From the IMG/VR virus record IMGVR_UViG_3300023179_000140, positions 1 through 54,081 of that record: DNA of 54,081 nucleotides, one strand, 5' to 3'. The notes under the pieces are model-generated. The model saw nothing but the letters and a program-made list of their open reading frames with translations. It made no database searches and was not told the origin of the DNA. Below, in pieces: positions 3,041 through 54,081 of the stretch. Numbering within the stretch: the first letter of the stretch is position 1; each line of letters opens with the position of its first letter. A program made the position numbers and the translations under genes. Source of the stretch: a virus (taxonomy: Duplodnaviria; Caudoviricetes).

Positions 3041-3290
3041 GCCATGCGCCACATGCGGTAAGCCATCTTGCTTATTATGCGACGGGAAAGTATACAAGCT
3101 GTTGAACGGAGAACTCCATCGCTTTGGTCGATCAATGGGCAGTAACATCCCTCGCGCTGCTACTACATGCGATGCTCCGATGTGTTTTGAGCATCGCCAC
3201 AAAATATCAGATGTCCACATGCGCACTGACAAGGGTTGTCGGTGGAACACCATTGACCTTTGCCCGCTTTGCAATCAGGAGACGAAATGA
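3033..3290 (+). CDS. Cys-rich putative Zn-finger protein
   Basis: CATC…LLCD…TCDAPMC…H…DLCPLC; GGAGGAG RBS. Confidence 0.65.
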   Translation: MDKPCATCGKPSCLLCDGKVYKLLNGELHRFGRSMGSNIPRAATTCDAPMCFEHRHKISDVHMRTDKGCRWNTIDLCPLCNQETK

Positions 3291-4275: not shown

Positions 4276-5165
4276 AGGCACCGTTTCCATGGGCCGGCGG
4301 AAAATCACGGGTGGCCGCTGAAGTTTGGGACCGCTTCGGCGACGTGGCGAATTACGTGGAACCGTTTTTTGGTTCCGGCGCGGTGCTACTGAACCGTCCA
4401 ACCTCACCCGGCACAGAGACTATAAATGATCTCGATTGCATGGTGGCCAACTTCTGGCGGGCGCTTCAGCATGATCCTGATTCGGTAGCCTTCCACGCGG
4501 AGAATCCAGTCAACGAAGCAGACCAACACGCGCGGCACCTGTGGCTTTGTTCACAGGCCGAATTCCGCGAAAAGATGAAGGTAGACCCGGATTATCACGA
4601 TGTCAAGATCGCAGGATGGTGGGTATGGGGCCAATGTATTTGGATTGGTTCGGGGTGGTGTGCGGTGCAGCTTCCCCACCTTGGGGACGCGGGGAAGGGG
4701 GTACATCGTAAGCGTCCCCACCTTGGGAACGCGGAAGAACCGATCTACGCTTACATGCGTGAGCTTGCGGCGCGGCTGCGGCGCGTGCGTGTCTGCTGTG
4801 GCGATTGGAGCCGAGTTCTCGGGCCTTCTGTTACCTTCAAACACGGAATTACCGGAGTGTTCCTAGATCCGCCATACGCGGACACAGCAGGCCGGACGGC
4901 TGATCTGTACGCCTCGGACAGCTTAACCGTTGCGCACAACGTCCGAGAATGGGCCATTGCCAACGGCGATAACCGAGACCTGCGCATTGCGCTCTGCGGC
5001 TACGAAGGCGAGCACCAGATGCCGGATTCGTGGGCGTGCCTAGCATGGAAGGCGGCTGGCGGGTACGGCAACCAAGGCGCGGAAAACAAGAATGCGGCAC
5101 GTGAGCGCATTTGGTTTAGTCCGGCGTGTTTGAAACCGCAGGGTACCTTGTGGAGTGCGCAATGA
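4272..5165 (+). CDS. DNA N6-adenine methyltransferase (D12/Dam class)
   Basis: PFPWAGGKS, YVEPFFGSGAV (SAM binding), INDLD, FLDPPY (catalytic). Confidence 0.92.
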   Translation: MKAPFPWAGGKSRVAAEVWDRFGDVANYVEPFFGSGAVLLNRPTSPGTETINDLDCMVANFWRALQHDPDSVAFHAENPVNEADQHARHLWLCSQAEFREKMKVDPDYHDVKIAGWWVWGQCIWIGSGWCAVQLPHLGDAGKGVHRKRPHLGNAEEPIYAYMRELAARLRRVRVCCGDWSRVLGPSVTFKHGITGVFLDPPYADTAGRTADLYASDSLTVAHNVREWAIANGDNRDLRIALCGYEGEHQMPDSWACLAWKAAGGYGNQGAENKNAARERIWFSPACLKPQGTLWSAQ

Positions 5166-5371
5166 AATGGGGCTGGCAGCAGATCGACGCGAACAACTAC
5201 CGCTACGACAAAACATGGTCCGTCCAGCGAGACTTGGCCAGCGGCAAGTGGTACGCGATGCGGGACGGGAAGTACTGCTTGGCGGATTTTTCGGACGCGG
5301 GCGGTGCTATGCACGAAGCGGATCTACTGAGGGAGGCGGACAAGCTGTATGCGAAAACCGATAGCGATTGA
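5162..5371 (+). CDS. hypothetical protein
   Basis: ATGA coupling to the adenine MTase. Confidence 0.6.
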   Translation: MKWGWQQIDANNYRYDKTWSVQRDLASGKWYAMRDGKYCLADFSDAGGAMHEADLLREADKLYAKTDSD

Positions 5372-6251
5372 CTTGTTTTGCGGCCTCGGTGGTTGGTCTG
5401 AAGGCTTACTATCTCAGGGGTACGACGTGACAGGCTACGACATTGAGGCGCATGAATACGGCGACCAAAAGTATCCCGCTACGCTAGTTCTACGGGACGT
5501 GTTGACAATCCACGGCAGCGAGTTCAAGGATGCCACCCTCATCGTGGCGTCCCCGCCTTGCCAAGAGTACAGCTACATGGCCATGCCATTTAAGCGAGGC
5601 AAACAAATCGCGGCGGCGCTTCGAGGGCAAGGTGAATTTCCAGAGGGTTATACCGGATCTCGCACGGTTGAGCAACTCAACGCACTGTTCAACGCCTGTT
5701 TCCGTATCCAACGGGAGACATCCGAAACGACTGGGCATTACGTACCCATGGTTGTTGAAAACGTGAAAGGGGCGCAGCCGTGGGTGGGGAATGCGAAAGC
5801 GAACTTCGGATCGTTCTACCTGTGGGGCGACGTGGATATGGTGGGGGACAGGATTTACGCCGGAAATCTGAAAATGGGGAGCGGGGTTAAGGCGGAGCGA
5901 CGGGGGCAGAAGATGAACCCAGACGGCACAGCACACGGGCATGGATCATGGTTTAAGGTGGCGGATTCGAAGAATCGCGGGGTTAAGGTACTCAACTCTA
6001 CTAAGAACACGGGCGGCAGTTGGTTTGCAATCGGATCTCCTGGGCAGACTGAGTTGAGCATGAATCCAGTCAACGGCACAAAAGGGAATGGCTCGTGGTT
6101 TGGTAGGTACACAGAAGCAAAGGCAGATGGCCGTGGAGTATCAAGTCGATACACGTCAAGCAAATCCCACGCCCGCAAAGCCGCATCCGCGCAGATCGCA
6201 AAGATACCTTTTGCGCTGTCCGAGTACATAGCAAAGGCGTACCTCCCATAA
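5349..6251 (+). CDS. DNA C5-cytosine methyltransferase-like protein
   Basis: DLFCGLGG (motif I), SPPCQ (motif IV), ENV (motif VI); C-terminal half atypical. Confidence 0.85.
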   Translation: MRKPIAIDLFCGLGGWSEGLLSQGYDVTGYDIEAHEYGDQKYPATLVLRDVLTIHGSEFKDATLIVASPPCQEYSYMAMPFKRGKQIAAALRGQGEFPEGYTGSRTVEQLNALFNACFRIQRETSETTGHYVPMVVENVKGAQPWVGNAKANFGSFYLWGDVDMVGDRIYAGNLKMGSGVKAERRGQKMNPDGTAHGHGSWFKVADSKNRGVKVLNSTKNTGGSWFAIGSPGQTELSMNPVNGTKGNGSWFGRYTEAKADGRGVSSRYTSSKSHARKAASAQIAKIPFALSEYIAKAYLP

Positions 6252-6281
6252 AACAAAGCCCCTAGGCTTGCGCCCAAGGGC
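6250..6281 (-). terminator. Rho-independent terminator ending the late operon
   Basis: Minus strand GCCCTTGGGC-GCAA-GCCTAGGGGC-TTTGTTTT: 10-bp stem with G-U pairs, GNRA loop, U tract; lies between convergent genes. Confidence 0.85.
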
Positions 6282-6307: not shown

Positions 6308-8929
6308 CTATTGTACTGTAATCGGGAAGTTCTCTCCAGCCGCAACCACGACATCGCCGCTAGTCAGATACTCCACCCGCATCTGCGCCGCCGTTCCCTG
6401 GCGCGTGTCTAACCCGGTGACAGTACACGGCGACGACGTGCAGGTCGTTGCCGCCGTGGTGCCGTTGGGCAGTGTCACGGTGGCCCGCATCTTCGCAGCG
6501 CTGGGCGGTGCGCCGGTCAACGTGTAGCTCACGGAGACGGATGCTGATACCGGCGTGATGTTGGCGTTGGTTGAGCCAAGACGATGGACTAGGTATTGCC
6601 AATTTCGGCAAGACTGACCATAGAACTTTCCGTTGCTGGATGTGGATGTTAGCATCCCGTATTGGCCATCCGCCCCCGTCCCGATCCACTCACCCATCAT
6701 GGCGGACCAAAGATTGTCGCCGGCCGCCAGAATTGGAGCCGACGCGCCCAACAGATACGTCATGCCGTAGGCGTCAACCGCAAGGTCGTTTTGCTGCCTT
6801 TGCCCTTGAATGTCCGTGTCGGAGGAGCACCCGGTACCAGTGTCCCCATTGGCGTAGTAGTTCGAGTAGACCACACGGCGGGCTTGAAGGTTGCCGAACG
6901 ATCCGGTACAGGTGAAGGCTGGCGTGATGCGGGCGGCGTTGGTCAAAACGTAGTTGCCGTAGTCCTGGATAACGGAAGCTGTCAGCGTCGTCTCTATGGC
7001 GGCACGATAGATCCTGACCATCGCCTCCATGAAGATGCCAGAATGCCAAACGATGTCTCCGTAGCCGAACAGTGATGCGTCCCCGGACTCGTACCGATAC
7101 CCGCCGTTCAACACCGTTGATGCCACAGCCTTTGCGTAAAGCTCGCCGCTCGTTCCCGTGCCTACCATCGGCGTTGTCAGCGTGACTTGCGTGTTAGAGT
7201 CTACGGACTGGATGACGTATTGCTTGTTGCTGTCCGCGCCGTCGTAAAACGCGATGCTCTGCCCTGCCGTGAAAAACGATAGGAACCCCGTCCCGCTGCC
7301 GGTAATGATCGCCGATCCGTTGGACGCGCTGATCGTCCCGGCCCCGGTGGTGTAGGCGTTGGTGCATTCAAACCGCGTGGTTCCGGTGAGACACTGAAGG
7401 CCCCGCGCGTAGTTGGTCATTTCGGTGACCAGCCGCGCCGCGTACGCCGTCCTAGTGGCCGGTGTCGGGTGAGCAACGGCTATCCCAGTCGCAGCCATGA
7501 ACGCATAGCCGGACTCGCGGAGGCCGAAGTACGGCGACGTGTAGCCGTTGTCGGTGCCTCTTTGTTCAACGTAAAGATCGAAATAATAATTGGCGTAGGC
7601 GGTGTAGCAAGTCCACTTCAGGCCCCCTGCCAGTTCGCCTGTTTCGTACGCACGAATCATCAAGCCTTGGATGCTGGCGTTTCTCGGTGCGAGCCAATTC
7701 GACGCCCCGCATGTCCCCGCTGTTGCCTGTGCCGCCCAAATCTGCGAATACCATTTATCGGCACATGCCCGCGCCGCCGTCTGGAATCTTGTCAATCCGG
7801 TGCGGTAGTAGTTCTGGTACTGTGCAAGACACGAATCATAATAGTTCTGTGCCTCCGTCGATGTGAAGGCGTTTGTGTAGTTCACCGTATCCGCGATCCA
7901 ATAATCACCCATTGTGCGGCGGTTCCGTTCGGCCCACGCCCACTCTTGAACACCAGCCGCCAGCATGTCACCCAACATCAGACCGATGGTGGAATCCGGT
8001 ACAACGACAACGCCCGCCGCGTTCGTGGCCACACTGCCAATCGTCAAAGAGGTTACCCCCTTCACGCCGTTGATAGTGGCCTCACAAGTAAGCGAGTATT
8101 GCCCGAACCCAGCGTTCCAGGTGACGGTGGGTGCCGAGGCGGTCGCGCTTGAGAACGACACTGATAGCGGTGGTGCCCCCTGTTGCCTCCACTTGTAGCT
8201 GTCCGCGTTGGTCCCGGCGCATGTCGGCGTGAAAGTGCTATTGCTGCGCACTGTCAACTCCTCGCCTACTATCGGGACGACTGGCGTTGATGGGTAGGTC
8301 GGCGATCCAGTCATAGTCAGATTCAGCCCGGTGGGGCTGCTGTCCGTGCCGCCGCCTTCGAACTCGTAATCCAAAAGGTTGCCGCCCGTGATGTTGGTAG
8401 GCATGGCACTATCCCGCGCTACCGTAGTTGAATACACCCGCAGCCACGCAAGGCCCGCAGGGACGCCGGTGCTGCCTCCGCTGCCATTGTGGAGCACGTC
8501 GAGTGGCGTGTTATTGAGGCTGATATTTGAAACGGTCGCCGCGACGAACTGTCCTCCGTTGTACGTTGCCCCGGTCGCCGCCCAGCTTTCGATGGTCCAC
8601 ATGGTTGTATTCCATTGAACTCTGACGATGACATCGCTTTGCGAGGCTGGGATAGTTGTGGAAATGGCCGGGGAGCCGCTGTCATAGAAGCTGGTGCAGG
8701 TAATGTTGCCAGCATTTTTACTGCACAGTAATGACCCGGCGTCCAGAATACGCCCCGTGCTGGTCCAATCGTGCAGGCGGAACTCGATTCGCACCTGCGT
8801 CATGTTCGTCCATGGCGTGGTGTTGGGGAGCGTGGCGGTGCCGTACTTGCCGCTGGCCCCTTGCAGGGAACGGTACGGGGCCTGAGCGAATAGGCAGGAC
8901 GACGCGATCATGAATAGGGCAAGTCTCAT
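6308..8929 (-). CDS. signal-peptide-bearing multidomain protein (LamG-like, Ig/PKD-like, helical enzyme-like core, beta-barrel insert); putative receptor-binding or glycan-active protein
   Basis: MRLALFMIASSCLFA|Q N-terminus; 'GLAWLRVY…LLDYEFE' LamG-like ending; 'SYKWRQQ…GQYSLT' PKD-like segment; Tyr/Trp-rich helical core. Confidence 0.6.
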   Translation of the reverse strand: MRLALFMIASSCLFAQAPYRSLQGASGKYGTATLPNTTPWTNMTQVRIEFRLHDWTSTGRILDAGSLLCSKNAGNITCTSFYDSGSPAISTTIPASQSDVIVRVQWNTTMWTIESWAATGATYNGGQFVAATVSNISLNNTPLDVLHNGSGGSTGVPAGLAWLRVYSTTVARDSAMPTNITGGNLLDYEFEGGGTDSSPTGLNLTMTGSPTYPSTPVVPIVGEELTVRSNSTFTPTCAGTNADSYKWRQQGAPPLSVSFSSATASAPTVTWNAGFGQYSLTCEATINGVKGVTSLTIGSVATNAAGVVVVPDSTIGLMLGDMLAAGVQEWAWAERNRRTMGDYWIADTVNYTNAFTSTEAQNYYDSCLAQYQNYYRTGLTRFQTAARACADKWYSQIWAAQATAGTCGASNWLAPRNASIQGLMIRAYETGELAGGLKWTCYTAYANYYFDLYVEQRGTDNGYTSPYFGLRESGYAFMAATGIAVAHPTPATRTAYAARLVTEMTNYARGLQCLTGTTRFECTNAYTTGAGTISASNGSAIITGSGTGFLSFFTAGQSIAFYDGADSNKQYVIQSVDSNTQVTLTTPMVGTGTSGELYAKAVASTVLNGGYRYESGDASLFGYGDIVWHSGIFMEAMVRIYRAAIETTLTASVIQDYGNYVLTNAARITPAFTCTGSFGNLQARRVVYSNYYANGDTGTGCSSDTDIQGQRQQNDLAVDAYGMTYLLGASAPILAAGDNLWSAMMGEWIGTGADGQYGMLTSTSSNGKFYGQSCRNWQYLVHRLGSTNANITPVSASVSVSYTLTGAPPSAAKMRATVTLPNGTTAATTCTSSPCTVTGLDTRQGTAAQMRVEYLTSGDVVVAAGENFPITVQ

Positions 8930-9972
8930 GGGATGAATGCCACCATAGGGTAAGCGTTGGCCGTAATGGAACCAGTAACAGCGGTGATACTGCCTGTGGT
9001 GGCCGGCAGGGCCAGCGTTCCGCCAGATCCAGTAGAGACATTTGCAGCAGTGCCAATTGCCACGGTGCTGGAAAAAGCGAAACCGGAACCGGAACCAGTG
9101 TTATAGGCAATCGTCCCGCCGTTGGATACATAGATGCCGGTAGCGGCATCGCCGCCAAATGCAAACCGATATGTCGTTCCTGCCGTCAGCGTCACTGTTC
9201 CGGCGAATGAGCACACATGGCCGTTGCCACTCCCGCTGGAATTGGCGCAGTTTGCGGTTGAATTGGTCACCCGAGTACTACCCGCAAAGGTGTAGATTGA
9301 AAATGCTACTGACGCCACACCGGACGCCTGATAAGCGATCTTCGTAAATGACATATTAAACGTTGGCGTGAAGCTGTACGCCTTGACCACAGTTGCTCCT
9401 GGATTGAATGCAATTTCTGATCCGGTAGGCGGACCAAAAGGCCAGTACACATCGACCAGCGTAGGTGTTGCACCTCCCCCGCCATCTCCTTGGATGATGT
9501 ATTGGGTGCCGTCATAGCAGATGGTGATGGGCCGGTCTGCTGTGATATCGCCCGCCGCTAACGCGGAACCGGCGCGGTTGAGTATGGACTTCGCGCCCAG
9601 AGTGTCCACGTTAATCGTCGCCGTCGTCACATTGGCAAAGTTGGCGTTTAGCGTCAGGCATCCGCCCGTGGTGTAGGCGGTGAGTGCGGGAGTCAGAGAA
9701 CAGGTGTAGGTGGCGTTGCCGGTGGTGCTCCGGCAGTACGTCGATGTCCCCGCTTGTGCCGTGGCGCGGCTTTGGATAATGGCCGTGTCAACCGTCCAAA
9801 GGCCTGCCGTATCGATGAGGCCTGATCCGGCCGTCACCGAACTACCAGCGCCCACCAAGTCAAGTTGCCCGGTGAAGGGGTTCAGCTTGACGGTCTGCGC
9901 CGACAAGGACGCCGCAAAAAACAAGGCAGCGGATAGTCCCGCTGCCCTTCCTGCCTTCAGTGCTTTGGTCAT
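8926..9972 (-). CDS. signal-peptide-bearing tail-fibre-like protein
   Basis: …AALFFAASLSA|Q; 'LTAYTTG…ANVTTATINVDTLGAKSI…LAAGDI…ICYDGTQY' fibre module; beta-rich C-terminus. Confidence 0.65.
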   Translation of the reverse strand: MTKALKAGRAAGLSAALFFAASLSAQTVKLNPFTGQLDLVGAGSSVTAGSGLIDTAGLWTVDTAIIQSRATAQAGTSTYCRSTTGNATYTCSLTPALTAYTTGGCLTLNANFANVTTATINVDTLGAKSILNRAGSALAAGDITADRPITICYDGTQYIIQGDGGGGATPTLVDVYWPFGPPTGSEIAFNPGATVVKAYSFTPTFNMSFTKIAYQASGVASVAFSIYTFAGSTRVTNSTANCANSSGSGNGHVCSFAGTVTLTAGTTYRFAFGGDAATGIYVSNGGTIAYNTGSGSGFAFSSTVAIGTAANVSTGSGGTLALPATTGSITAVTGSITANAYPMVAFIP

Positions 9973-9978
9973 GGCCGT

Positions 9979-10263
9979 TTACTGACGCCCCCCAGCCCGC
10001 GACGCCAGCTTTGCAACGGCATCCGGATTCTCAAACCCGAATCCGTCATACACGACCCTCTTGGCGGTCGGCACGTATTTGAGTGCGATCACGTCAATCT
10101 GCTGTCTGGCAGCAGCGACGAAATCCTCGAACGGATCAATATCCGGGACCTGAACCGTGTCGGTTCGAATGCCAGCGACCTGGAAGTTAACAAGGCGAAC
10201 GTCCTTGTTTTCTTCCGCCTGAACGATGTCCAGAACTTTGACTACTACCCATGTTGATGCCAT
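9979..10263 (-). CDS. hypothetical protein
   Basis: AAGGA RBS; within the late operon. Confidence 0.65.
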   Translation of the reverse strand: MASTWVVVKVLDIVQAEENKDVRLVNFQVAGIRTDTVQVPDIDPFEDFVAAARQQIDVIALKYVPTAKRVVYDGFGFENPDAVAKLASRAGGRQ

Positions 10264-10275
10264 TTTGTTTTTCCT

Positions 10276-11640
10276 TTACTGAATGAAGATTGACCACGCA
10301 CGCCAAGTTGTTTGAGTTGTCGCGCCGCCCGTGCAAGACACGCCAATGCGATCACCAGCGACAACAGCTATCGATGGGGTTGCTGTCCATGACCTAGGGT
10401 TAGACCCATAGGATAGAGCAACAATAGTTATCGTGGGAGTTTGATCCACTTGGTTCAAACGAATGCGACACGTTGCGTCGTTTGACGGTGCCGTTGTGCC
10501 AGTAACAATTACGAACCTTGTTATCGTACCGGCGAAGGGGACCGTAAATTGACGACCGGCCTCGCCAGTACCCATGGTCGCTGCTCCAGCGCAATACGCA
10601 AGCGTTGACGCCACTAAAGCGCTATCCAGGCATGTAGACCCAATGTAATATCCAGCGCCTAGATTCGTCCTGGCTGTAGCCGCATCTGATGCCCCTGTTC
10701 CGCCTTGCAGTACCGTGACAGCGGCATTGTCTGTTAACACGGTGGCGCTGGCATTGGGGAGGGTGAACGTCTTCTCGGATGTCGTTGGTCCAGACAGCTT
10801 CGCGAAGCCGTTGCCGGTACCGCCAAACGTAGACGAGATTACTTGAGTGAGTGCCGCTGTGCCATCGAAGTTGTTGCCGTAAATGGCGCGAGGGGTAGCA
10901 AGCGCTGTTGCTGTCGCCGCATTACCTGTCGTTGACCCGGATGATCCACTGACATTCCCCGTCACATTCCCCGTCAACGACCCCGAAAACGTCCCTGACG
11001 TGGTACCGGGAAGAGTTGGGTTATTCGGAATGCTCAGCGTGATAGCCCCGGTGGAGGCGCTTGCCGTGATTTGGTTGGCCGTGCCAGTGATGGTCGTAGG
11101 GAGCGGCGTGCAGGACTCGGAATTTCCGGAGGCGTCCACACCGGGAGTGAAACTGCCAGCGCTGCAATTAGTCCCGTTGGCGGCTAGGGCTGTTGCGGTC
11201 GCTGCATTCCCAGGAATGTTCGTCTGATCGCCGGTATTCGTCCCGCTCAGATTGGACCCGGTGACCGTTCCAACCGCAGCCACGCTGGACGGTGTGATCC
11301 CGCCAAGCGTCAGCGTGATCGCTGGTGTTGTGGTGGCCGTCGCCACGCTGCCAGAAACACCATTGGCCGTGGTGACCGACACGGACGTTACGGTACCGGT
11401 TCCGCCACTGCTCGGTATGGCTGGAGCCCACGCCGATCCAGAGTCCCGGCACAAGAGCGTAACCGACCCGCCGCCAACCGTACAACTGGCGGTGGAGGCA
11501 GCGTCGGTGACGAAGGCAATTCGATTGCGGACGCCAAAAGCGGGAAGTTTGGCCACGGTATAGGACTGCACAATCGGCCACAGAGGGCGGATCTGCGCAG
11601 CCAACGGCAGCAGCGCCAACGCGAGTATCAGGCGAACCAT
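10276..11640 (-). CDS. signal-peptide-bearing tail-fibre-like protein
   Basis: MVRLILALALLPLAA|Q; fibre motifs GTVTSVSV, GNAATATAL (twice), FDGTA, QGGTGASDAATARTNLG. Confidence 0.75.
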   Translation of the reverse strand: MVRLILALALLPLAAQIRPLWPIVQSYTVAKLPAFGVRNRIAFVTDAASTASCTVGGGSVTLLCRDSGSAWAPAIPSSGGTGTVTSVSVTTANGVSGSVATATTTPAITLTLGGITPSSVAAVGTVTGSNLSGTNTGDQTNIPGNAATATALAANGTNCSAGSFTPGVDASGNSESCTPLPTTITGTANQITASASTGAITLSIPNNPTLPGTTSGTFSGSLTGNVTGNVSGSSGSTTGNAATATALATPRAIYGNNFDGTAALTQVISSTFGGTGNGFAKLSGPTTSEKTFTLPNASATVLTDNAAVTVLQGGTGASDAATARTNLGAGYYIGSTCLDSALVASTLAYCAGAATMGTGEAGRQFTVPFAGTITRFVIVTGTTAPSNDATCRIRLNQVDQTPTITIVALSYGSNPRSWTATPSIAVVAGDRIGVSCTGGATTQTTWRAWSIFIQ

Positions 11641-12122
11641 GACTTCACCTTGTCGATCCAGCTAACCGGCGGAGGCGGTAGTGGAGGTAGTTCCGGCTTC
11701 ATTGCCGCAAGATCTCGCGCCTCCTCTAAAAGCGCGACCATTTCTGCCTTGAGCGCGTTGGCAACCCGCACCACATTCGTCGGAGGCATGCTTGCCATTT
11801 GAAGGACGGCCTGAAAGACTCCTCTCTCAACCTTGGGAGCAAGCCGCCCGTCTGGGATGCCGATGCGGATATGTTGGTCAGACTGGATGCCGCCAGGCCG
11901 AAGTAGCAGGATGTTCGTCCCGGCTATGTCGGCAATGCGGTTGATTAGCTTGCGCTCCCACTCCGAATCAACGCCATCGACTGTCGGCACAGGGCCGTCG
12001 CAATGAACGATCTCCACCGTGTACAGATACCCCTCATCGCTGACCACCACAGTGGGATCTTGATTCAGCATTCCGCGAATCGCAATTGCGGAATCGGTAT
12101 TACCTAAGATTCTGATTCTCAT
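11628..12122 (-). CDS. hypothetical protein
   Basis: Late-operon position; Pro-rich C-terminus; start set at ATG 12122. Confidence 0.6.
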   Translation of the reverse strand: MRIRILGNTDSAIAIRGMLNQDPTVVVSDEGYLYTVEIVHCDGPVPTVDGVDSEWERKLINRIADIAGTNILLLRPGGIQSDQHIRIGIPDGRLAPKVERGVFQAVLQMASMPPTNVVRVANALKAEMVALLEEARDLAAMKPELPPLPPPPVSWIDKVKSWFA

Positions 12123-12126
12123 ATTT

Positions 12127-12456
12127 TCACCCAATGAACAGCACAGAGACGTTGAACGAACCGGAGGAGCTTTTCAGGTATGAAACAGCGTCGCCATTCT
12201 GCGCCGCCGCATAGCCCGTGATGCCCCTAGGGTCATCGGACATAATCCACTCTTCCTGCGTGCCGGCCGGAATGGTCAGTTGGGTTGTGGCCGACGAACT
12301 GACGATCCGGCGGTAAATATCAAGAGCGCCAGCCTCGTTGTTTGACACGATGATCCGCTTGACGTTAAACGGCCTGCCGGACAAGGACGCGCTCGGGACA
12401 ACAACTGGAGTCCATACTACCGAATCAACAGCGATGAGTGACTGTGCGATGTTCAT
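12127..12456 (-). CDS. hypothetical beta-rich (jelly-roll-like) protein
   Basis: Short all-beta pattern; adjacent to neighbouring late genes. Confidence 0.6.
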   Translation of the reverse strand: MNIAQSLIAVDSVVWTPVVVPSASLSGRPFNVKRIIVSNNEAGALDIYRRIVSSSATTQLTIPAGTQEEWIMSDDPRGITGYAAAQNGDAVSYLKSSSGSFNVSVLFIG

Positions 12457-12457
12457 G

Positions 12458-12994
12458 TCATTGATATTGCGTCGGGCTGGTCGTGCAAGTGGTCGTCGAG
12501 GAAGGCACGCCGGTGGACCACCCAGACCAAATCATGTTGCTGCCGCTGTAAACAAAGAACTGCACCGACCAGATACTTGATGTCGTCCTGGGTGCTCGCG
12601 TGGTGAATACAATCGTCCCCGTTAAAGCACCGAAGGCCGTCGCGTCAACCGGGATGGAGAGTGTGGTGGAACTGATGATCGTCGCTGTTCTCGCTCCATT
12701 GATTGCAACCCAGTTCCCCGTGCCGCCGGACACGGAGATGTTTGGCTTGGAACTGACATCGAACCCATGCCCGCCGCTGACGGTCAGTACGGTCGGACTG
12801 GCGTTGGTAGCGGATGCCACCGAGATTGCCGGCGACACGGGCTGAATCGAAGCGGCCTTGCAGAGATAAATCAGGTTAGATCCTGAGTACCCGGCGATGT
12901 ACTGATAGCCGACATCCGGGTTTCGCTGCGATAGCCGGAACTCGGTTTGCGCGAATGCCGACAGTGACGCCAGCACGAGGAGTAGTTTTTTCAT
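12458..12994 (-). CDS. signal-peptide-bearing protein with an FCCH-like beta-barrel
   Basis: MKKLLLVLASLSAFA|Q; SATNASPTVLTVSGGHGF…INGARTATIISSTTLSI. Confidence 0.7.
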   Translation of the reverse strand: MKKLLLVLASLSAFAQTEFRLSQRNPDVGYQYIAGYSGSNLIYLCKAASIQPVSPAISVASATNASPTVLTVSGGHGFDVSSKPNISVSGGTGNWVAINGARTATIISSTTLSIPVDATAFGALTGTIVFTTRAPRTTSSIWSVQFFVYSGSNMIWSGWSTGVPSSTTTCTTSPTQYQ

Positions 12995-13302
12995 GAGTTG
13001 CCTTTCAATTTAATTGCTTGCGAGAGCGCTACGGACACCGGGTGAATCCAGCGCTCATGAACCGGGTCCGTCAGTTCCGAGCACACATGGAGAAGTTCAT
13101 GCGCCATAATGCGGTCTGGGTCCTTGTGCTGCCCGTCGCGCACCCTGATGGTCCACGGCGGTCGCTGGCTTCCGTCGTATTCGACCGTGGCATCACAGTG
13201 CGGGATCTGGTCGGCCGGTACCATATACAGCTTCGGCATCGGACGGATTTTCAAAATTCCGCACCAAAACTTTAATAGCGATCGCCACTCTTTAAGGTTC
13301 AT
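12991..13302 (-). CDS. small zincin-like metallopeptidase-fold protein
   Basis: AHELLH (HExxH) motif followed by …HE. Confidence 0.6.
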   Translation of the reverse strand: MNLKEWRSLLKFWCGILKIRPMPKLYMVPADQIPHCDATVEYDGSQRPPWTIRVRDGQHKDPDRIMAHELLHVCSELTDPVHERWIHPVSVALSQAIKLKGNS

Positions 13303-13436
13303 TTAACAACCAGCCTCAGATTCGCGAGCATTGCGGCCATGAGCGCTTGGATGTGTGGCTTGGCAAACAGCTTGGCAATGTCCACCACTGTCCGCCCACA
13401 CGGGTAAACTTTGACAGTATCTGATCTGCTAGTCAT
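13299..13436 (-). CDS. 45-aa hypothetical peptide (MTSRSDTVKVYPCGRTVVDIAKLFAKP…)
   Basis: Not in the ORF track; ATGA overlaps at both ends; bounded by a 13-bp direct repeat. Confidence 0.6.
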   Translation of the reverse strand: MTSRSDTVKVYPCGRTVVDIAKLFAKPHIQALMAAMLANLRLVVK

Positions 13437-13666
13437 TTAACAACCTTCCGGTAGTGTGGGACGGGGTACGGACGGCCGCCTGCCATGATGCGAAACTTCT
13501 TCACCTCGACTAAGCCAGCGCTTACGCCGCGCTTGAGTATCTCTGCCGTTCGCGGCGTTGAAAGGCCTGCTTCCGCCGCGTGTCGCTCTGCGGTTTCCCA
13601 TCCATCTGGCACTTCGTCAAGCCCTCCGTTTTGCAGCGCGGTAGCCAGTTCTTTCAAGAAGCTCAT
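13433..13666 (-). CDS. winged-helix-like protein
   Basis: GWETAERHAAEAGLS…AEILKRGVSAGLVE…F…PHY; ATGA coupling. Confidence 0.6.
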   Translation of the reverse strand: MSFLKELATALQNGGLDEVPDGWETAERHAAEAGLSTPRTAEILKRGVSAGLVEVKKFRIMAGGRPYPVPHYRKVVK

Positions 13667-14406
13667 AGCGGAAACCGCCATTCTTCCGGCTCGCCGTCAC
13701 CGCACTCGCATTGCGTTAGATTGAGCGCCGCCGAAGTGTCGCTAACCTCTCCCCACACGCAACCATGAGCCCATGCGTGCCAGGATCGATGGTTGAAAGC
13801 GTACTCCATCTTGTGCTTGTTGGCCGTCATCCCAACGCAGTAGCCAACAGCCCCGCCGTGCCGTCGCGCTTGCGCGATGCCGGGTTTGTGGAGATGTGCA
13901 ATGACGCAGTTGCCGTAGTTTTCGGCGTGGTCGCGAAGAGCCTGTTCGTTGTAATAGATCCCGTGGCCCCACTTGTACCCGCCGAACTCGAACCACTGCT
14001 TGACCGGGTGATAGGGGTTGACGACCGTTCCGTTCTCCCGGTCAATCTCGCGGATGCTATTCAGGACGCGCGAAGCCGCGTACGAAATCACCGCGTTGTT
14101 CGTCCCCACTAGTTTGTATATCCGGTGGTCGTGATTGCCCTCTATGCGGTGCGTCGGGCGATACCGCTTCAGCCAATCACTCCCCGCGTCAAAGTCTACA
14201 TCCACGTCAGCCGATTCATCGCTGGTGCCTTTTGCGCCGGTTCGGAACGCCGTGAAGTCGCGAACGTCTCCGTGGTCGATGACAATTTCCGGGTTAAATC
14301 GCTCCCGGAAAGCTAAAATGTTGTCCTGTGCCGTTTGGCAGGCGTATGCGCCATGATTGCAGCCAACCGACATGATCCGCCGCCACTTCTGGACGACGGC
14401 GGGCAC
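13663..14406 (-). CDS. calcineurin-like metallophosphoesterase
   Basis: GCNHG, DHGD..D, EGNHD, GHG and AHLH motifs; GTG start overlapping the upstream TAG. Confidence 0.85.
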   Translation of the reverse strand: MPAVVQKWRRIMSVGCNHGAYACQTAQDNILAFRERFNPEIVIDHGDVRDFTAFRTGAKGTSDESADVDVDFDAGSDWLKRYRPTHRIEGNHDHRIYKLVGTNNAVISYAASRVLNSIREIDRENGTVVNPYHPVKQWFEFGGYKWGHGIYYNEQALRDHAENYGNCVIAHLHKPGIAQARRHGGAVGYCVGMTANKHKMEYAFNHRSWHAWAHGCVWGEVSDTSAALNLTQCECGDGEPEEWRFPL

Positions 14407-14726
14407 TACTTGCCCCCACCGTGTTGCACTATCCATGACGCCACCGCGCCAATAATTCCCGCTGGAATCGTTGACACAAGAGCCACGAACCGCCACGCGC
14501 CACGAACTTCCGCCAACGCTGTTTCTAGCACGGCTATACGGTCTTCGTTCTTTGCCGTGCGTCCGTTTAGCGTTCCGAGGTGAGACTCAATACTGATGAG
14601 CTTTTGCTCAATTACTGCTTCTGACGTGCGGCAATGCGCCACGTCGTCGCGCAATGTGACAAGGACTTGCCCCATGCGATGAAGTGCTTCGAGCGGTTCC
14701 TGTGAGGCCAAGATAGACTCCGGCAT
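14406..14726 (-). CDS. coiled-coil plus C-terminal TM protein (holin/XhlA-like)
   Basis: HLGTLNGRT…RIAVLE followed by one TM helix. Confidence 0.6.
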   Translation of the reverse strand: MPESILASQEPLEALHRMGQVLVTLRDDVAHCRTSEAVIEQKLISIESHLGTLNGRTAKNEDRIAVLETALAEVRGAWRFVALVSTIPAGIIGAVASWIVQHGGGK

Positions 14727-14732
14727 TGGGAT

Positions 14733-14906
14733 CTACTGCTTCTTTGAATCTTTTGCAAACCACCCCAACAAGGTAGTTGAGATCACGGCAATGGCTTGCG
14801 CTACCGGTGCAAGATCAGCCGGAATTCCAAATGCGCCAGGGTTGGCTACCGCCGCTCCTGCCAGCGCCGCCACGAATCCACAGATGCTTGTTTTCCAGTC
14901 GTTCAT
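14733..14906 (-). CDS. small two-TM holin-like protein
   Basis: MNDWKTSICG…LLGWFAKDS, typical of small holins; AAGGGG RBS. Confidence 0.65.
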   Translation of the reverse strand: MNDWKTSICGFVAALAGAAVANPGAFGIPADLAPVAQAIAVISTTLLGWFAKDSKKQ

Positions 14907-14938
14907 CGCTTCCCCTTTATCGCACGTATTGAAAGTAT

Positions 14939-14968
14939 GCAGAGGACACACCAAAGTATGCCCTCTGC
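14939..14968 (-). terminator. 13-bp hairpin (C-UUUG-G loop) with a weak U tract upstream of the holin-like genes
   Basis: GCAGAGGGCATAC-TTTG-GTGTGTCCTCTGC-ATACTTT. Confidence 0.55.
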
Positions 14969-14979
14969 CGGTGATTGCA

Positions 14980-15357
14980 TTAAGCCGTGAGAGCCCGCTT
15001 GATAGCCTTGCGGACTTCCGGGATGTTGAGCATGGCGGACTCGGCGTCGAGGTCCAGTTCATCGCAGATGCTGCGAAACGCAGTGGTCGGATCGCCGATG
15101 ATCTTTTCCGTGGCGATCAGCGACGCGACAACAAATAGCCGCCCTGACGGCCCCTGCACGTGGACATAGTACTTCTCTCCGGGAGCGAGTTCCCCTGCCG
15201 GAACTTGATCGATAGGATAGATCTCCATCGCTCCTCCGCCGACCTCTTCCACGCAAAGCTGGCCGAAGGGTAAGCCAAGCGCCTGCTTGGACTTCACCCA
15301 CGCCTCGGCAACTTCAATGGAAACATTCTGTGTTCTGTTGGGTGCTACGAAATTCAT
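14980..15357 (-). CDS. hypothetical protein
   Basis: GAGGA RBS; late-operon position. Confidence 0.65.
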   Translation of the reverse strand: MNFVAPNRTQNVSIEVAEAWVKSKQALGLPFGQLCVEEVGGGAMEIYPIDQVPAGELAPGEKYYVHVQGPSGRLFVVASLIATEKIIGDPTTAFRSICDELDLDAESAMLNIPEVRKAIKRALTA

Positions 15358-15375: not shown

Positions 15376-18300
15376 TTATTTCTGTTTAGCCCTGCGCTCG
15401 GCAATCGCTTCCAGGACTTTATCGGTCAAAATCTTTTTCTCTTGGAATGGCTCAAGGATGGCGACCGCTTCGTCCTCGCTCTTTCCTTTAATCAGGCCGA
15501 GAAAATATTCCGCTCGCTCGTCGGCGCTCTTGTGAAGAAGGTATCGATCTGACTTGCTCAGTCCCGACTGTTCTCCCTGTACCATTTTAGCGATATAATC
15601 TTCTGTTTCCTCACTCATGGTGCCATTATCTAGGGCCTCAATCATGCGCCGCTCGCCCTCTACCCTGTCGTCCTTCCAAGCGTTGAACAATTCCCGCGCC
15701 ATCCGCATGTTCGGGGCCTTTTCTTTTGCGATGGTTTGCGACGCCTCGTCGATAGCCGCCATCTCGCGCTCGTCGGTCGCGCCGCCACGGGCTTGAAGCG
15801 CACGCCGGCCAAACGCTTGCGCAGTGGACTCGCCGCCGACCGGCACTTTCCGCAGGTAGTCGAGCACGGCATTATTGCCTGGAATGGCGTCAGCCACACC
15901 TTTGCGGGCTCGGTCCACGACGTTTAGGACCTGCGGTGCGACAGTGCCAAGGTGGCCCTTGATCATGTGGTCTACCTTCAACGGAGCCGCACCGATGGCA
16001 TCTCCGATCATCTGCGCCGTCCCGCTGGTGGAGTCGAAGCGCTGTTCGGATGTTGGGAGCGAAAGCATCCGCTGCGGAACGATATCACGGTTCGTGAAGA
16101 AATTCTTATTGACCGACACCTCAACGGCGGGCTTAGCTGTCATCGGCACAAACTGGCCCGCCATCTGTTCGCCGGTCCCGGAGATCGGGTTGAGATAGTT
16201 GTAGACGGCGGCAAGATATTCTTGGGCCTTTACTGGATCGCCGCCGTACTGCGCTTCGATGTTCCGGCGCACCAACGTGCCGACATCGCTGATCCCAGGA
16301 GCCATCGGTAGTTTAATCGCGTCGTATGTGCCTCTGCTGTTCTTCTTCGGATTCTCCGGCAACCAAATTAGAGACTTGTCTTTCTCCCACGGCTCAATAT
16401 CTTCCCACGCCTTCCGTTTCTCCGGCGTGCTGATATTGTGCAGTGTGGCGATAGCCACCGGGATCGCCACCGTCATAGCTGCTCTGGTCGCAAACCCCAC
16501 CGGGTCCTTGCGCATCGCGCTGATCGAACTTCGAGTACCCTGGATGCCAGCGTTGGCGTATGGGAATAGGACCATCAGGCCGCGCTTATAGTTGCCGCCC
16601 CGGTAAAAGTCGCCGGTGGCCTGGCGTGATGCCTTGGCGGCGGTAGCAGCGGCGTCTTGCTCTCCCATCCCTCGCTTGATCGCCTCAGCCTTGGCGATGC
16701 GGTATGCCTGCATGCGGGTCATGTCTTCCGTCATGCCGATGAAGTTCTCGACATCGCGCCAACCGCCGCGAAGGGCGTTTGTGACGCGGCTTGTGCCGGA
16801 CTCAAAACGATGCGTGCGCGCCACGCTCTGATTCGGAAGCGTGGACTCATCCCGAAATACATTCCCGAGGGTGTTGTATTTCTGAGCCCGGATGTCGCGC
16901 ACCCCAAGGAGCGGTTGCTCCCGGTACAGGTCGAACGAGTTGCCGCCGCCACCGTTCCAAACCATCTCGTCGTACATGCCGTTGCGGGCGGAGACGTAGT
17001 TGTCGCCCACATCGCGGATCGCCTGAAGCGTGGCCTTAGCAATATCCATGTGGATGCCGGTGAGATCACCGATCTTTCCGGCTATCGACTTGGACCCTGG
17101 ATTCGCCTTCTCCGCCATGCGGTCCACGCTTATTTGGTTCAAGTGCCGCGTCGCTTGGTCGCGCGTGAAATTGTATAGCGCGAATATCGGATTGATGCCA
17201 GTGGTACCGACCTTGAACGCCCGCACCGCCCCGCCAAGAATCTGCTGAAGCAAGCCCATGCCCTGCGCGTCCAAACTCTTGGCTGCCCGAACGTACTCAA
17301 CCGGCGCGGCAACGTGCTGGGCGTTGCCGTTCTCAAGGTAGGTGAAGTACTGCTCCGGCTTCATCTTCTCGGCAGTCTTTGCGGAAATGCGGCGGATGAA
17401 CTTGTCGCCACCGGGAAGGTCGCCATATTGCGCGGCAGTGCGGGCGGCTTCGTTCTGCGCCGCCTCCCGGATCACTTGGTTGGTTTTTTTGAGAAGGTTC
17501 TCTAGCGGGCTATCAATCGCCAGTTTGTCTGAGCCCTTGAGCTTTTGAATGACATTCGTGGACGACTTGCTGGCCGTCGCGCGCGTGTTCTGAAACGGCT
17601 CCACCCCTTCCGGCATAATGCGGTGAAGATCGGCGTAGTCTGGATACATCTTTCGGAGATTGTCAATTTCTGCCTGACTTTTTATCCCCGACTGCACCAT
17701 CATATCCTCAAGCGCGGTGACGTGATTCTTGACGGCATCGAGATGCTGCTGGTACTTCGGCGTGAACTCAGCGATAAGCGCGTCGTCCTTCAGGATTTCA
17801 TCCGGTTCTCGGCCCAACTCAATCTGTCCGCGCTCCTCCAGCCGCGCGATCTCTTTCATCGCTCGCTCGGCGGCGGTCTTGCTCCCTGATTGCTTTGCCG
17901 CAGCGTAGGATGTTTTGGCAGCGGCAAGGTCAGCCGCGTTCTGCGCATTCGTGCGGTCAATCTCAGCGGCTCGACGGGCCAGCAAAAGCCGGTCGAACCC
18001 CTCCACGTCCATCTGCGTCGGCAAGTTTTGGATGGCCTTCGTCAGTCCGGTCTTCTTGGCGAAGACTCCGGCGCGGGAGTTGGCTCGATAGACGTTCGCT
18101 ACCGCCCGATCAAATTCCATGCTGGGGCGAATGGAGTAGGTGTCATTGTCGCCTTTGATGATCTCCCGGTGAACGTCTTCCATGGGAGCTATCGCGTCCA
18201 CCAAATCCGGCCGCAATCCATGCCAGTACAACTGAAGCAGCGACGGCTTAGACGCTTGCATTGCCCGTCGTGCGGCCTCTCGCTTGGCCACCTGTTCGGA

Positions 18301-20436: not shown

Positions 20437-21705
20437 TTATTTGACCTGCTCCCAACTCGACGGCGATGCTGGGTCACCGCCTTTGAAGCGGTAGCCGCCC
20501 TTGACGGTACCAACGGCGGGAGCCGGCGGCTTGGCCGCTGCTGGTTTAGCCGCCGGTGCAGCGCCGCCGCCTCTCAGCGCCCCACGCAAGTCTACTTTCC
20601 CGCCGCGCTGTGGTTTGCGCAGTTTCTCCCCTTTCATGGCCATCAAGCGCTGCCGAACTTGCTCCGCCGTCTCGTCTCTTTCTGCCCACGAGTTGATGTC
20701 GGCCAGCGCCTTGTCTTCACCGCCGCTCTCTGCGATGAAGGCGTCTGTTCTCTCTTGGATCTTTCGCCGGTTCTCAGCCGCCGACTGATTCGCCGTTAAT
20801 CCGCCAGTGCCGCGTGCGGCGGTTGGGCGGTTCGCTCGGTTTGCCGTAGCCTGCTTGGCTTCGTTTGCCAGCCTTCGCTGCTCCTGATATAACTTCGCGG
20901 CCTCTGCGTCCACCTCGGCTTGCTCCCAATCAGGGTGAGCGTCTTTGATGGATTGCTTCAGGGTGTCATATCCACGGTCGGAGCGCGGCGCATTGTTCAT
21001 AATCGGCGCAACCATACTGCCGTTGGCGTAATAAAAGTCTTTGCCCTCTACCCCGTCACCGAAGTACGGCTTGTTGTCGCGGCCCATCTTGATTCTGGTT
21101 TCCGGCGGCTTGGGGTTGGTGAACTTGGGATTGCCATTTATATCCACGGCTACTTGTCCTTGACCGACATTATGTAGCCGCTCACCATAACTTCTGCCAC
21201 GCGCCCGTTCTGCATCACGCCGTGCAGCAGATGCTTCTGCCATCGCCATCTGGCTTTGCGTCTGCGCCGCCTCATGATCTAACTTCGACTGCCCCATCAT
21301 GGTCGCCACCCGTCCTTGATACTCCCGCATCTGACGGTCGTAACCAGGCGCAAGGATCTCGCGGCCAATCGGAGGAACGTACATCGACGCGACGGTGCCA
21401 AGGATCTTGCGAGTCAGCCCAACCTTCGGCGGCGCGGGCGGCTCCGGCAACTCCATGCGCTGCGATTGACGCGGCGGAAGCGGCCCGTACTCGCGCTGCG
21501 GAACAGCCACCGGTGCGTCCTCTAGCAAGCCGCTCATGCCGCGCGGCTCTGGCGCGTCGTACTCAGCCATGGGCGTACGGGGTCGGTATTGCGGCGGCGG
21601 CGGCGGGGGCGGGAGCGCCGGGGCCTCTTCGCGTTCATCGTACAGGCCATCCGGGGCGAAGCCGGGGGTGCGGAGGAGTTTACGAGGGTCGAAGAATGGT
21701 CCCAT
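20437..21705 (-). CDS. putative ejection/internal virion protein
   Basis: Helical, A/Q/E-rich; C-terminal GTVKGGYRFKGGDPASPSSWE; lies upstream of the giant polyvalent protein. Confidence 0.65.
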   Translation of the reverse strand: MGPFFDPRKLLRTPGFAPDGLYDEREEAPALPPPPPPPQYRPRTPMAEYDAPEPRGMSGLLEDAPVAVPQREYGPLPPRQSQRMELPEPPAPPKVGLTRKILGTVASMYVPPIGREILAPGYDRQMREYQGRVATMMGQSKLDHEAAQTQSQMAMAEASAARRDAERARGRSYGERLHNVGQGQVAVDINGNPKFTNPKPPETRIKMGRDNKPYFGDGVEGKDFYYANGSMVAPIMNNAPRSDRGYDTLKQSIKDAHPDWEQAEVDAEAAKLYQEQRRLANEAKQATANRANRPTAARGTGGLTANQSAAENRRKIQERTDAFIAESGGEDKALADINSWAERDETAEQVRQRLMAMKGEKLRKPQRGGKVDLRGALRGGGAAPAAKPAAAKPPAPAVGTVKGGYRFKGGDPASPSSWEQVK

Positions 21706-21707
21706 GG

Positions 21708-23399: not shown

Positions 23400-23400
23400 A

Positions 23401-23907
23401 TCAATACCGCCCCATCGTCGGCTCTACCTGACGACGGTATTCAGACCCGGCAATGTCTTCTTCGATGGGCTGAGGCATGGGCATAGGCATCGGCGTCTCC
23501 TCGCCAATGTATCCGCCGCCGTATCCACCCAGCCCGCGCTGCGGGACCATGGGCGGCATCCCCCACGAGCGCTGCTGATAGCGCGTCTCTTGCGGCATCG
23601 GACGGTACTGTTGCTGTTCCGGCTGCGGCATGGGCCGTTCGTCGTCATACTTCGACATCGGCCGAGCCGGGGGCGGCTGGTATCCGCGTTGCGGTTGCTG
23701 CATTTGACGCTGAGGCCCGCCGTAGCCGCCGTACTGCGGCTGCCGGTAGGGAGGTTGAGGCTGGCGCTGCTGGCCGTACATGCGCTGCTGCGGCTGCTGC
23801 GGCTGAGGGCGTCCGTATGGCATGCGGTCGCCGGTGTTGCGCATGGGCTGCTGCCGGTCCTGCTGTGGCTGCGGTTGCTGTGATTGTCCGGGTACGACGA
23901 ATGGCAT
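23401..23907 (-). CDS. low-complexity Q/P/R/Y/G/M-rich disordered protein
   Basis: AAGGAG RBS; abuts the downstream gene. Confidence 0.6.
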   Translation of the reverse strand: MPFVVPGQSQQPQPQQDRQQPMRNTGDRMPYGRPQPQQPQQRMYGQQRQPQPPYRQPQYGGYGGPQRQMQQPQRGYQPPPARPMSKYDDERPMPQPEQQQYRPMPQETRYQQRSWGMPPMVPQRGLGGYGGGYIGEETPMPMPMPQPIEEDIAGSEYRRQVEPTMGRY

Positions 23908-54024: not shown

Positions 54025-54081
54025 ATGCGCGGTAGAAAACAAAGGGTCGCGCGGTCGGGGTCGGGGTCGGGGTCGCGGTCG
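54025..54081 (+). CDS. Ser/Gly/Arg-repeat protein, 3'-truncated (MRGRKQRVARSGSGSGSRS…)
   Basis: GGAGGT RBS; tandem GGTCGG/GGTCGC hexamers. Confidence 0.55.
   Translation, partial: MRGRKQRVARSGSGSGSRS

Follow-up and report, generated by a model that had tools for sequence, protein, structure and literature searches.

Late genes of a freshwater tailed phage encode fibre-like proteins with predicted Sec signal peptides

Some phage proteins are known to work outside the cytoplasm. Llp of T5, Lom and Bor of lambda, and Cor are envelope proteins that are encoded beside receptor-binding genes and act in receptor blocking and exclusion. In bacteria, exopolysaccharide loci encode secreted glycan-cleaving enzymes, such as PslG, PelA, AlgL and BcsZ. 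Here we analyzed a contig of 54,081 bases, the entire IMG/VR record IMGVR_UViG_3300023179_000140 (referred to below as the window), and in particular a block of seven genes at positions 6308-12994, four of which encode proteins that combine putative Sec signal peptides with modules known from phage receptor-binding proteins. Leaders of this type have been reported in phages of Porphyromonas gingivalis, which carry five leader genes that follow the Q-rule, i.e., with Gln immediately after the cleavage site; in the accessible part of that report their function is given as not known, and the authors propose an adaptation to the general secretion system of the host (PMC10367356). Exported proteins with a fibre architecture are also found in the predatory bacterium Bdellovibrio bacteriovorus, whose mosaic adhesive trimer (MAT) fibres are described, in the available sections of the paper, as having a conserved N-terminal domain, swappable tips and a surface location (PMC10769870). 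Phage tail fibres, by contrast, are generally taken to be cytoplasmic proteins. One survey takes the absence of a signal peptide as a mark that separates phage from cell-surface origin, at least in the portion of its text available to us (PMC6199706).

The first-pass annotation of this DNA had singled out four late ORFs with export leaders ending at an Ala-Gln site. All four are present, with the N-termini and cleavage sites that it quoted:

6308-8929, minus strand: predicted exported multidomain protein of 873 aa; leader MRLALFMIASSCLFA followed by Q, residues 1-15 (8885-8929)
8926-9972, minus strand: predicted exported fibre-like protein of 348 aa; leader ending ASLSA, followed by Q, residues 1-25 (9898-9972)
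10276-11640, minus strand: predicted exported fibre protein of 454 aa; leader ending LPLAA, followed by Q, residues 1-15 (11596-11640)
12458-12994, minus strand: predicted exported protein of 178 aa; leader ending LSAFA, followed by Q, residues 1-15 (12950-12994), predicted cut before Q16

Leaders were called with a home-made heuristic scan for the n-h-c form (basic n-region, hydrophobic h-region, c-region with the cleavage site), which accepted a wide residue set at position -3, so that "signal peptide" stands here for a sequence form together with comparative evidence. A first scan of 305 six-frame ORFs of at least 60 aa listed 21, among which a strong core followed by an Ala-Gln site occurred only in the four, with the exception of an out-of-frame 96-aa ORF whose site is implausibly early. 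A second scan flagged 4 of 42 chosen window proteins, exactly the four block genes. The n-regions carry positive charges in every case (across the four leaders: R2; K3, K6 and R9; R3; K2 and K3), the best eight-residue Kyte-Doolittle means of the h-regions are 2.2-3.4, and helices were modelled at residues 2-13 of the 873-aa protein and 2-14 of the 178-aa protein. Position -1 is Ala in 4/4 and position +1 is Gln, the Q-rule residue, in 4/4; at -3 the 178-aa protein has Ala (AFA) and the other three have Leu (LFA, LSA, LAA), which is not a small residue. None of the four has a lipobox with Cys at +1, and neither Pfam nor NCBIfam, at E up to 0.1 or 1, gave a C-terminal type IX sorting domain in any of them. 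The start codons are fixed by the tight packing of the genes (ATGA stop/start overlaps at 8926-8929 and 12991-12994, a 13-nt overlap of the 454-aa start with the upstream gene, and very short gaps), as well as by the N-termini of homologues.

In all four families the homologues keep the leader and do not begin downstream of the hydrophobic segment. An N-terminus resembling a signal peptide was found in 57/61 members of the 178-aa family, and 55/61 have Gln preceded by a small residue (A, G, S, C or T). The residues of the hydrophobic core change freely along this alignment, in contrast to Gln16 and Cys45, which are at least 90% conserved; a variable core before a conserved Gln is the pattern expected of a working leader. 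For the 348-aa protein, 53 of the 68 close relatives (E 1e-13 or better) have such an N-terminus, compared with 2/15 distant ones (E above 1e-8), which are otherwise ordinary leaderless proteins of the tail-fibre type. The repeats of the 454-aa fibre are shared by 2158 homologues, both leaderless phage-type and leader-bearing proteins, with signal peptide-like N-termini in 61/119 among the matches listed. The 873-aa family has 582 relatives, counted as cluster representatives, and 90 of the 116 that reach at least 800 aa look leader-bearing. Across the families both sequence and length of the leaders vary, and the n-h-c form and the small residue before Gln are kept. These comparisons support the view that the N-termini behave as genuine leaders for Sec and signal peptidase I (SPase I).

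The leader-bearing proteins also differ from other late gene products in their cysteine content. Cys makes up 1.73% of the four (32 of 1853 residues) and 0.47% of 16 late or structural proteins (39 of 8340 residues; Fisher p 1.5e-7; this and similar p-values are too small, as related sequences were treated as independent, and the direction is the same in every comparison). Cys is entirely missing from the 1686-, 563-, 422-, 466- and one of the 447-aa proteins of the structural module, and from two of the three leaderless block genes. The closely spaced Cys pairs noticed earlier were found in the 454-aa protein (53/64, 159/177 and 337/350; 8 Cys in total, four pairs by spacing) and in the 348-aa protein (80/91 and 242/254; 6 Cys in total), while the 178-aa protein has conserved Cys45 and Cys170. 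The same link holds among homologues. At least 4 Cys beyond residue 30 are present in 48/61 fibre homologues with a leader and in 13/58 without one, some of these Cys-rich "leaderless" entries being N-terminal fragments or having leaders that the rule missed; in the 348-aa family the corresponding counts are 55/55 and 14/28. Moreover, in this family the tail-fibre domain carries conserved Cys where a leader is present, whereas 0-3 Cys were counted in it in the distant leaderless members. Such a link between leader and Cys points to two lineages of the same modules, one folded in the cytoplasm and the other in an oxidising compartment, and it lends indirect support to the proposal that these proteins are disulfide-bonded in the periplasm. 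Taken on its own, the proposal that the four proteins are exported by Sec, cleaved before Gln and folded with the help of disulfide bonds thus appears highly probable from sequence comparison.

The hydrophobic N-termini could in principle be something other than cleaved export signals: uncleaved anchors, tethers like those of signal-arrest-release (SAR) proteins, or docking helices buried in the tail, unless the true starts lie downstream. The Ala/Gly/Ser-rich leader of the 348-aa protein does resemble a SAR segment. However, the conserved form and Gln site of leaders that otherwise vary, the Cys link to an oxidising compartment and the start codons fixed by packing and homologues all speak against this explanation, and no lysozyme, amidase or peptidase domain, the mark of a SAR endolysin, was found in the four proteins with Pfam, PHROG or NCBIfam. 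We consider it very improbable.

The sequence content of the window identifies it as a tailed phage, without a terminal overlap, and no tRNA gene was found across the 54,081 bases. Its anchoring features are the following:

37776-39665: large terminase
34487-36712: portal, weak match to phrog_156 (E 2.3e-5)
6258-6281, minus strand: terminator-like hairpin of 10 pairs, 7 of them G-C, with a T-run, 27 nt past the 873-aa stop

The late genes all share the minus strand and extend between about 41.9 and 6.3 kb, with the block at 6308-12994 as their distal part; helicase and primase genes are on the plus strand. A 1686-aa protein with LPD38 and GNAT domains, encoded in the late run, looks like an ejected polyvalent protein. 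The hairpin at 6258-6281 is likely the end of the late transcription unit, and two plus-strand DNA methyltransferase genes converge toward it, ending at 6251. The signal scan found no promoter or terminator bracketing the block genes; promoter-like sites numbered 6, compared with 4.8 +/- 2.3 in shuffled sequences, and the promoter and terminator scan overall did not rise above shuffles. Another hairpin, at 9923-9948 on the minus strand (11 perfect pairs, G+C-rich, with a T-run), falls inside codons ~9-17 of the 348-aa leader, just downstream of the 94-aa gene of the block; it could be an internal terminator or attenuator, or be there by chance.

Known phages are very distant: among 50,697 deposited phage records, relatives of the terminase reach only ~25% identity, and neither the block DNA nor the four leader proteins gave any match, although for the proteins a low-complexity filter may hide fibre repeats. 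The contig DNA was found in a lake-water metagenome run, and a second freshwater study holds 22 fragments of it, 22/22 with at least 99% identity. Contigs of the second study span the 348/873 junction including the 873-aa leader (8909-9130) and the 168/454 junction (11601-11822). We rejected a chimeric or artefactual assembly, because the independent run and synteny with related contigs both cover the block.

The gene block is conserved as well, since runs of leader-bearing genes recur in related metagenomic phage contigs. Of 25 metagenomic loci fetched with the 178-aa family, the long ones were examined; the family occurs on contigs of up to 45-72 kb, where it is core-like. Downstream of the 178-aa homologue, large leader-bearing ORFs number two in locus L086, three in L087, L092 and L093, four in L084, and five in L085 and L098, their leaders ending AQ, GQ or SQ (for several, whose listed ORF began too far upstream, the leader was identified by eye). 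L087 is syntenic with the window, in the order 178-109-168-454-like...348-like. Homologues of the 717- and 563-aa structural proteins of the window lie upstream in L086 and L093, and in L085, L086 and L093 the cassette directly follows three large proteins that, by position only, may be ejection proteins. These arrangements support the interpretation of 6308-12994 as a lineage-conserved cassette of products predicted to leave the cytoplasm. Pfam was mostly blank on 18 leader-bearing or neighbouring proteins of the related loci, and did not confirm the 896-aa protein of L086, which may be tailspike-like. Against IMG/VR, the 873-aa protein gave nothing, the 178-aa protein one weak match and the terminase one 19-kb relative, L079, which is without the block. 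In L079 the terminase match is split, with residues 20-54 at 3090-3194 and 52-629 at 4290-6020, ~1.1 kb apart; an intron, an intein or a homing-endonuclease insertion could account for this. Among 78 genome loci fetched with the fibre alignment, none contained a related phage. The search for a prophage-like copy of the 178-aa family gave 0/401 Acidobacteriota genomes and one weak, domain-level match in 401 Bacteroidota genomes.

These data bear on the idea that the block is moron-like cargo, drawn from a host repertoire of surface fibres and lectins and expressed from a prophage to alter the surface of the lysogen (adhesion, exclusion), in the manner of Lom and Bor of lambda. In its favour, leader-bearing proteins with fibre repeats are common in Bacteroidota and Acidobacteriota genomes, and one member of the 873-aa family ends with the Solibacter C-terminal domain TIGR03437 (E 6e-49); the five Q-rule leader genes of the Porphyromonas phages, as far as the published excerpt describes them, would also fit (PMC10367356). 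Yet no integrase was found among the window proteins searched (some small ORFs lay outside that search), the block genes are not bracketed by signals of their own and their stops and starts overlap upstream late genes, and the 178-aa family is core-like on long contigs rather than found integrated in the 401 + 401 genomes. A moron origin is therefore improbable in our judgment.

Once the leaders are removed, the mature parts share modules with virion receptor-binding proteins, namely fibre repeats, an FCCH-like barrel and a tail-fibre domain, to which the 873-aa protein adds lectin-like and helical domains, as judged from sequence and models. The fibre character proposed earlier for all four stands for the 454-aa protein by repeat homology, for the 348-aa protein by its PHROG domains and trimer model, and for the 178-aa protein by its barrel, and fails for the 873-aa protein. 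In the 454-aa protein a small N-terminal domain with Cys precedes the tail-fibre repeats, after which comes a C-terminal domain; the protein gives weak matches to tail-fibre PHROGs and contains GNAATATAL twice and QGGTGASDAATARTNLG once, as had been noted. The 348-aa protein, which contains TATINVDTLGAKSI, matches the tail-fibre families phrog_28171 and phrog_27282 and has a conserved NPxTGxxD motif at its mature N-terminus. Three copies of its mature part were modelled together, it alone of the four being covered by trimer modelling, with an interface score (ipSAE) of 0.91 versus 0.00 for the best of three controls; contact agreement between runs was at least 77% and partner pLDDT at least 80. 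For calibration, 20 of 30 proteins solved as pairs attain this ipSAE mark, as does 1 of 23 solved as single chains; these counts apply only approximately here, as our own alignment and three copies were used. The 348-aa protein is thus probably trimeric, as modelled. FCCH-like domains are common in virion proteins, and the FCCH-like barrel suspected in the block is the 178-aa protein, whose AlphaFold2 (AF2) model (pLDDT 83) matched the FCCH domain of UBA6/UBA1 at E 2e-5. A further feature of the 178-aa family is a C-terminal Gln in 56/62 members (typically ...QYQ or ...AQ), which would give a mature protein with Gln at both ends.

The 873-aa protein was ruled out as a fibre by its AF2 model (pLDDT 91.7, pTM 0.91), which is globular and multidomain: a leader helix precedes a LamG/ConA-like and an Ig/PKD-like domain, these are followed by a long helical stretch into which a beta portion is inserted at 526-625, and a beta-sandwich makes up the C-terminus. 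Foldseek matched laminin-G/neurexin LNS and LG domains at about E 1e-5. Predicted viral structures include a full-length relative (E 9e-48), and residues 529-603, within the insert, match the N-terminus of the tail-fibre family phrog_1980. Of 401 Acidobacteriota genomes, 162 matched a profile of the family; in nearly all of them the match was confined to the PKD-like domain, and it extended further only in G365, G069 and G039 (the tally includes genomes G029, G054 and G157, on none of which our claims rest). G069 and G039 each encode a leader-bearing protein of ~550 aa, similar to the 873-aa protein over its helical region and C-terminus. In G069 this homologue, of 552 aa, is surrounded by genes for exosortase EpsH, DUF3485, three glycosyltransferases, Poly_export and Bac_transf, a polysaccharide-locus context that suggests a role of the 873-aa protein on exopolysaccharide. 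We propose it as a candidate glycan-binding or glycan-cleaving protein. Searched alone, it had no match in five genomes reached via loci.

The three interleaved genes, which the first-pass annotation suggested could be adaptors or chaperones, carry no leader:

9979-10263, minus strand: 94-aa leaderless protein, 0 Cys; no match in Pfam or PHROG, chance-level NCBIfam match (E 0.16)
11628-12134, minus strand: 168-aa leaderless protein, 1 Cys, Pro-rich C-terminus; no family match, homologue in L087 with 45% identity at the same position
12127-12456, minus strand: 109-aa leaderless protein, 0 Cys; no match in Pfam, PHROG or NCBIfam, homologue in L087 with 49% identity at the same position

Only the 109- and 168-aa genes recur, in the one syntenic locus L087. 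None of the seven block proteins matched a Pfam family. With NCBIfam, the 94- and 454-aa proteins alone gave matches, at chance level and well short of the curated thresholds, and searches of PDB sequences with the 717-, 447- and 454-aa proteins returned nothing usable.

In T7- and P22-like podoviruses, the fibre or tailspike gene comes after the ejection proteins. The block follows ejection-like proteins and so occupies the podovirus fibre position, which favours a virion role: the exported proteins would be real receptor-binding fibres, passed through Sec, cut to Gln and assembled into disulfide-bonded trimers, which join fibreless particles when the holin opens the inner membrane or after lysis. 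P22 heads that lack tailspikes can reportedly be completed in vitro. This scenario also draws on the homology to tail-fibre repeats and tail-fibre PHROGs, the trimer model of the 348-aa protein, the conserved module after the leader followed by variable tips, as in anchored receptor-binding proteins, the recurrence of the cassette on divergent phage backbones, and the lack of prophage-like copies of the 178-aa family in the Acidobacteriota genomes searched, with a single weak match in Bacteroidota. Several observations are difficult to reconcile with it. Export would keep the fibres apart from the capsids until lysis, and a literature search on exported tail fibres and virion proteomes turned up no described case. 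In the 348-aa protein the leader stands in place of the N-terminal part of leaderless relatives, and the 873-aa protein is globular, with a cellular homologue in a polysaccharide synthesis locus rather than a virion context. In addition, the structural module contains a leaderless fibre-like candidate:

25614-26957, minus strand: 447-aa leaderless, Cys-free fibre-like candidate; phrog_584 (E 4.5e-9) and E1_FCCH (E 7e-6), the FCCH match being under the Pfam cut-off and phrog_584 ("major tail protein") matching through the same domain

If this candidate, a reading from sequence, is correct, the phage need not rely on the exported proteins for adsorption. Completion of virions by the exported proteins seems to us rather unlikely on balance, though it is an alternative to be taken seriously.

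Instead, we tentatively favour an action on the glycans of the host's own envelope. The globular build of the 873-aa protein, with its lectin-like and helical parts, and the polysaccharide locus in which its cellular homologue lies favour this reading, as do the replacement of the N-terminal part of leaderless 348-aa relatives by a leader and the presence of a leaderless 447-aa candidate elsewhere. According to this model, the four precursors would be made late in infection alongside the virion genes, as indicated by their location on one strand with those genes, by overlaps between stop and start codons, and by the fact that the only convincing terminator follows the last gene. The precursors would pass the Sec translocon and be cut by SPase I after Ala, as suggested by the sequence form and its conservation, leaving an N-terminal Gln that may cyclise. 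Folding with disulfide bonds would take place in the oxidising periplasm, in view of the link between leader and Cys, and at least the 348-aa protein is modelled to trimerise. The mature proteins, acting from the periplasm or the cell surface, would then bind, mask or cut a polymer that serves as receptor or matrix, the targets being host envelope glycans (exopolysaccharide, capsule or lipopolysaccharide). As a result progeny would be freed, would not stick to debris, and superinfecting phages would be excluded, with no cytoplasmic assembly of these proteins onto particles; in a variant, they would be displayed as adhesins on the surface of the infected cell. Taken whole, with the biological role included, we give this envelope reading somewhat less than even weight.

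Several points count against it. Besides the fibre position of the block, its modules all look like virion types, and the conserved N-terminal modules that follow the leaders resemble anchors, although these matched no known tail-anchor domain in Pfam, PHROG or PDB. Neither catalytic residues nor membership in a known glycosidase or lyase family was found for the 873-aa protein with Pfam, NCBIfam and fold searches, and no route across the outer membrane is evident. Finally, the 447-aa leaderless protein is a candidate drawn from sub-cut-off matches and inspection by eye, and the cysteine comparison is statistically overstated, as explained above.

The Q-rule leaders and the homologues of the block proteins also give hints about the host. 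By a crude count of the residues at +1, Gln ranked first in a Candidatus Solibacter metagenome-assembled genome (MAG; 16/68) and in a Chitinophagaceae MAG (17/57), compared with 1/36 in a Binatia MAG (loci L118-L137 of G001, L138-L157 of G004 and L158-L177 of G005). The rule was published as specific to Bacteroidetes, according to the accessible part of the report (PMC5837995), and from these sequence counts it may extend beyond Bacteroidota to Acidobacteriota. The Solibacter domain TIGR03437 and the exopolysaccharide-locus homologues point toward an Acidobacteriota host, and one 178-family member in a MAG labelled Bacteroidota points toward that phylum. These pointers to the host phylum conflict.

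The block is flanked upstream by other minus-strand late genes, beginning with the following:

12991-13302, minus strand: 103-aa protein with HELLH, its stop overlapping the 178-aa start; weak match to Peptidase_M91 (E 0.004), under the cut-off

Further upstream, 13433-14496 (minus strand) encodes a metallophosphoesterase of 277 aa and, next to it, an 82-aa protein. The pair recurs at 12196-13151 of L034, with 37% and 36% identity; L034 is a 20-kb contig of a Gammaproteobacteria MAG that otherwise shares with the window only the fibre repeats used to fetch it, so the two genes may form a small mobile module. Between the 1686-aa gene and the block, at 14406-15062 (minus strand), a 106-aa protein with a hydrophobic C-terminus and a 109-aa protein with two hydrophobic segments in its second half are, by eye, candidates for holin or spanin. 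No endolysin domain was found in the window proteins searched. At 15376-23907 (minus strand), no Cys occurs in the 1686-aa LPD38 and GNAT protein or in the proteins of 422, 563 and 168 aa encoded upstream, the last of these being of extreme Gln/Pro-rich low complexity. A second 447-aa protein, at 24181-25524 (minus strand), has three internal repeats of ~140 aa with a recurring FVMNANAG...ADQ...VHS..GTD motif, and an L079 homologue aligns to it twice. The contig ends, at 54040-54081, in a short run of GGTCGGG-type repeats.

The pattern spans several families, with 2158 fibre relatives, 582 representatives for the 873-aa protein and tens each for the 178- and 348-aa proteins. If the envelope reading is true, it would be common for phages to deliver lectins of fibre-like build and glycan-active proteins to the host envelope, a new class of late auxiliary function (release, exclusion, biofilm matrix). 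If the exported proteins are instead virion fibres, the assembly of a tailed phage would be split over two cell compartments, which has not been described before for tailed phages. These genes would be misread both by host-range prediction that relies on a "tail fibre" annotation and by filters that remove proteins with leaders as non-viral.

T5 Llp, Lom, Bor and Cor are small, belong to the lipoproteins or outer-membrane proteins and have no relation to fibres, whereas the proteins described here are large, have no lipobox and are homologous to fibre modules. With PslG, PelA, AlgL and BcsZ they share the setting of a leader-bearing homologue, which resembles the 873-aa protein in its helical region and C-terminus and lies in an exosortase-type polysaccharide locus; searches with Pfam, NCBIfam and Foldseek gave the 873-aa protein no sequence or fold match to the families of those enzymes, and no catalytic residues were identified in it. 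Fibre repeats, a tail-fibre domain, an FCCH-like barrel, modular tips and the position after ejection-like proteins are features of canonical tail fibres and tailspikes, which, however, are without signal peptides, and the leaderless relatives found here are poor in Cys. The MAT fibres of B. bacteriovorus likewise combine a signal peptide, an N-terminal domain, a trimeric fibre and phage-fibre-like modules outside the cytoplasm; as described in the available sections, they are chromosomally encoded in a predatory bacterium and displayed on its surface, in contrast to the phage-borne late genes of the window, and the likeness considered here is one of architecture (PMC10769870). The P. gingivalis phage genes are tailed-phage genes too, with predicted SPase I cleavage exposing an N-terminal Gln, but in the accessible part of that report they are five scattered genes of temperate phages, for which no fibre homology is stated (PMC10367356). 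Here, the four genes form a contiguous block that occupies the fibre position and encodes receptor-binding modules; the phage appears to be lytic, and its host is not known to be Bacteroidota. The window thus encodes a whole cassette of the receptor-binding type that combines predicted export signals with a cysteine signature pointing to an oxidising compartment.

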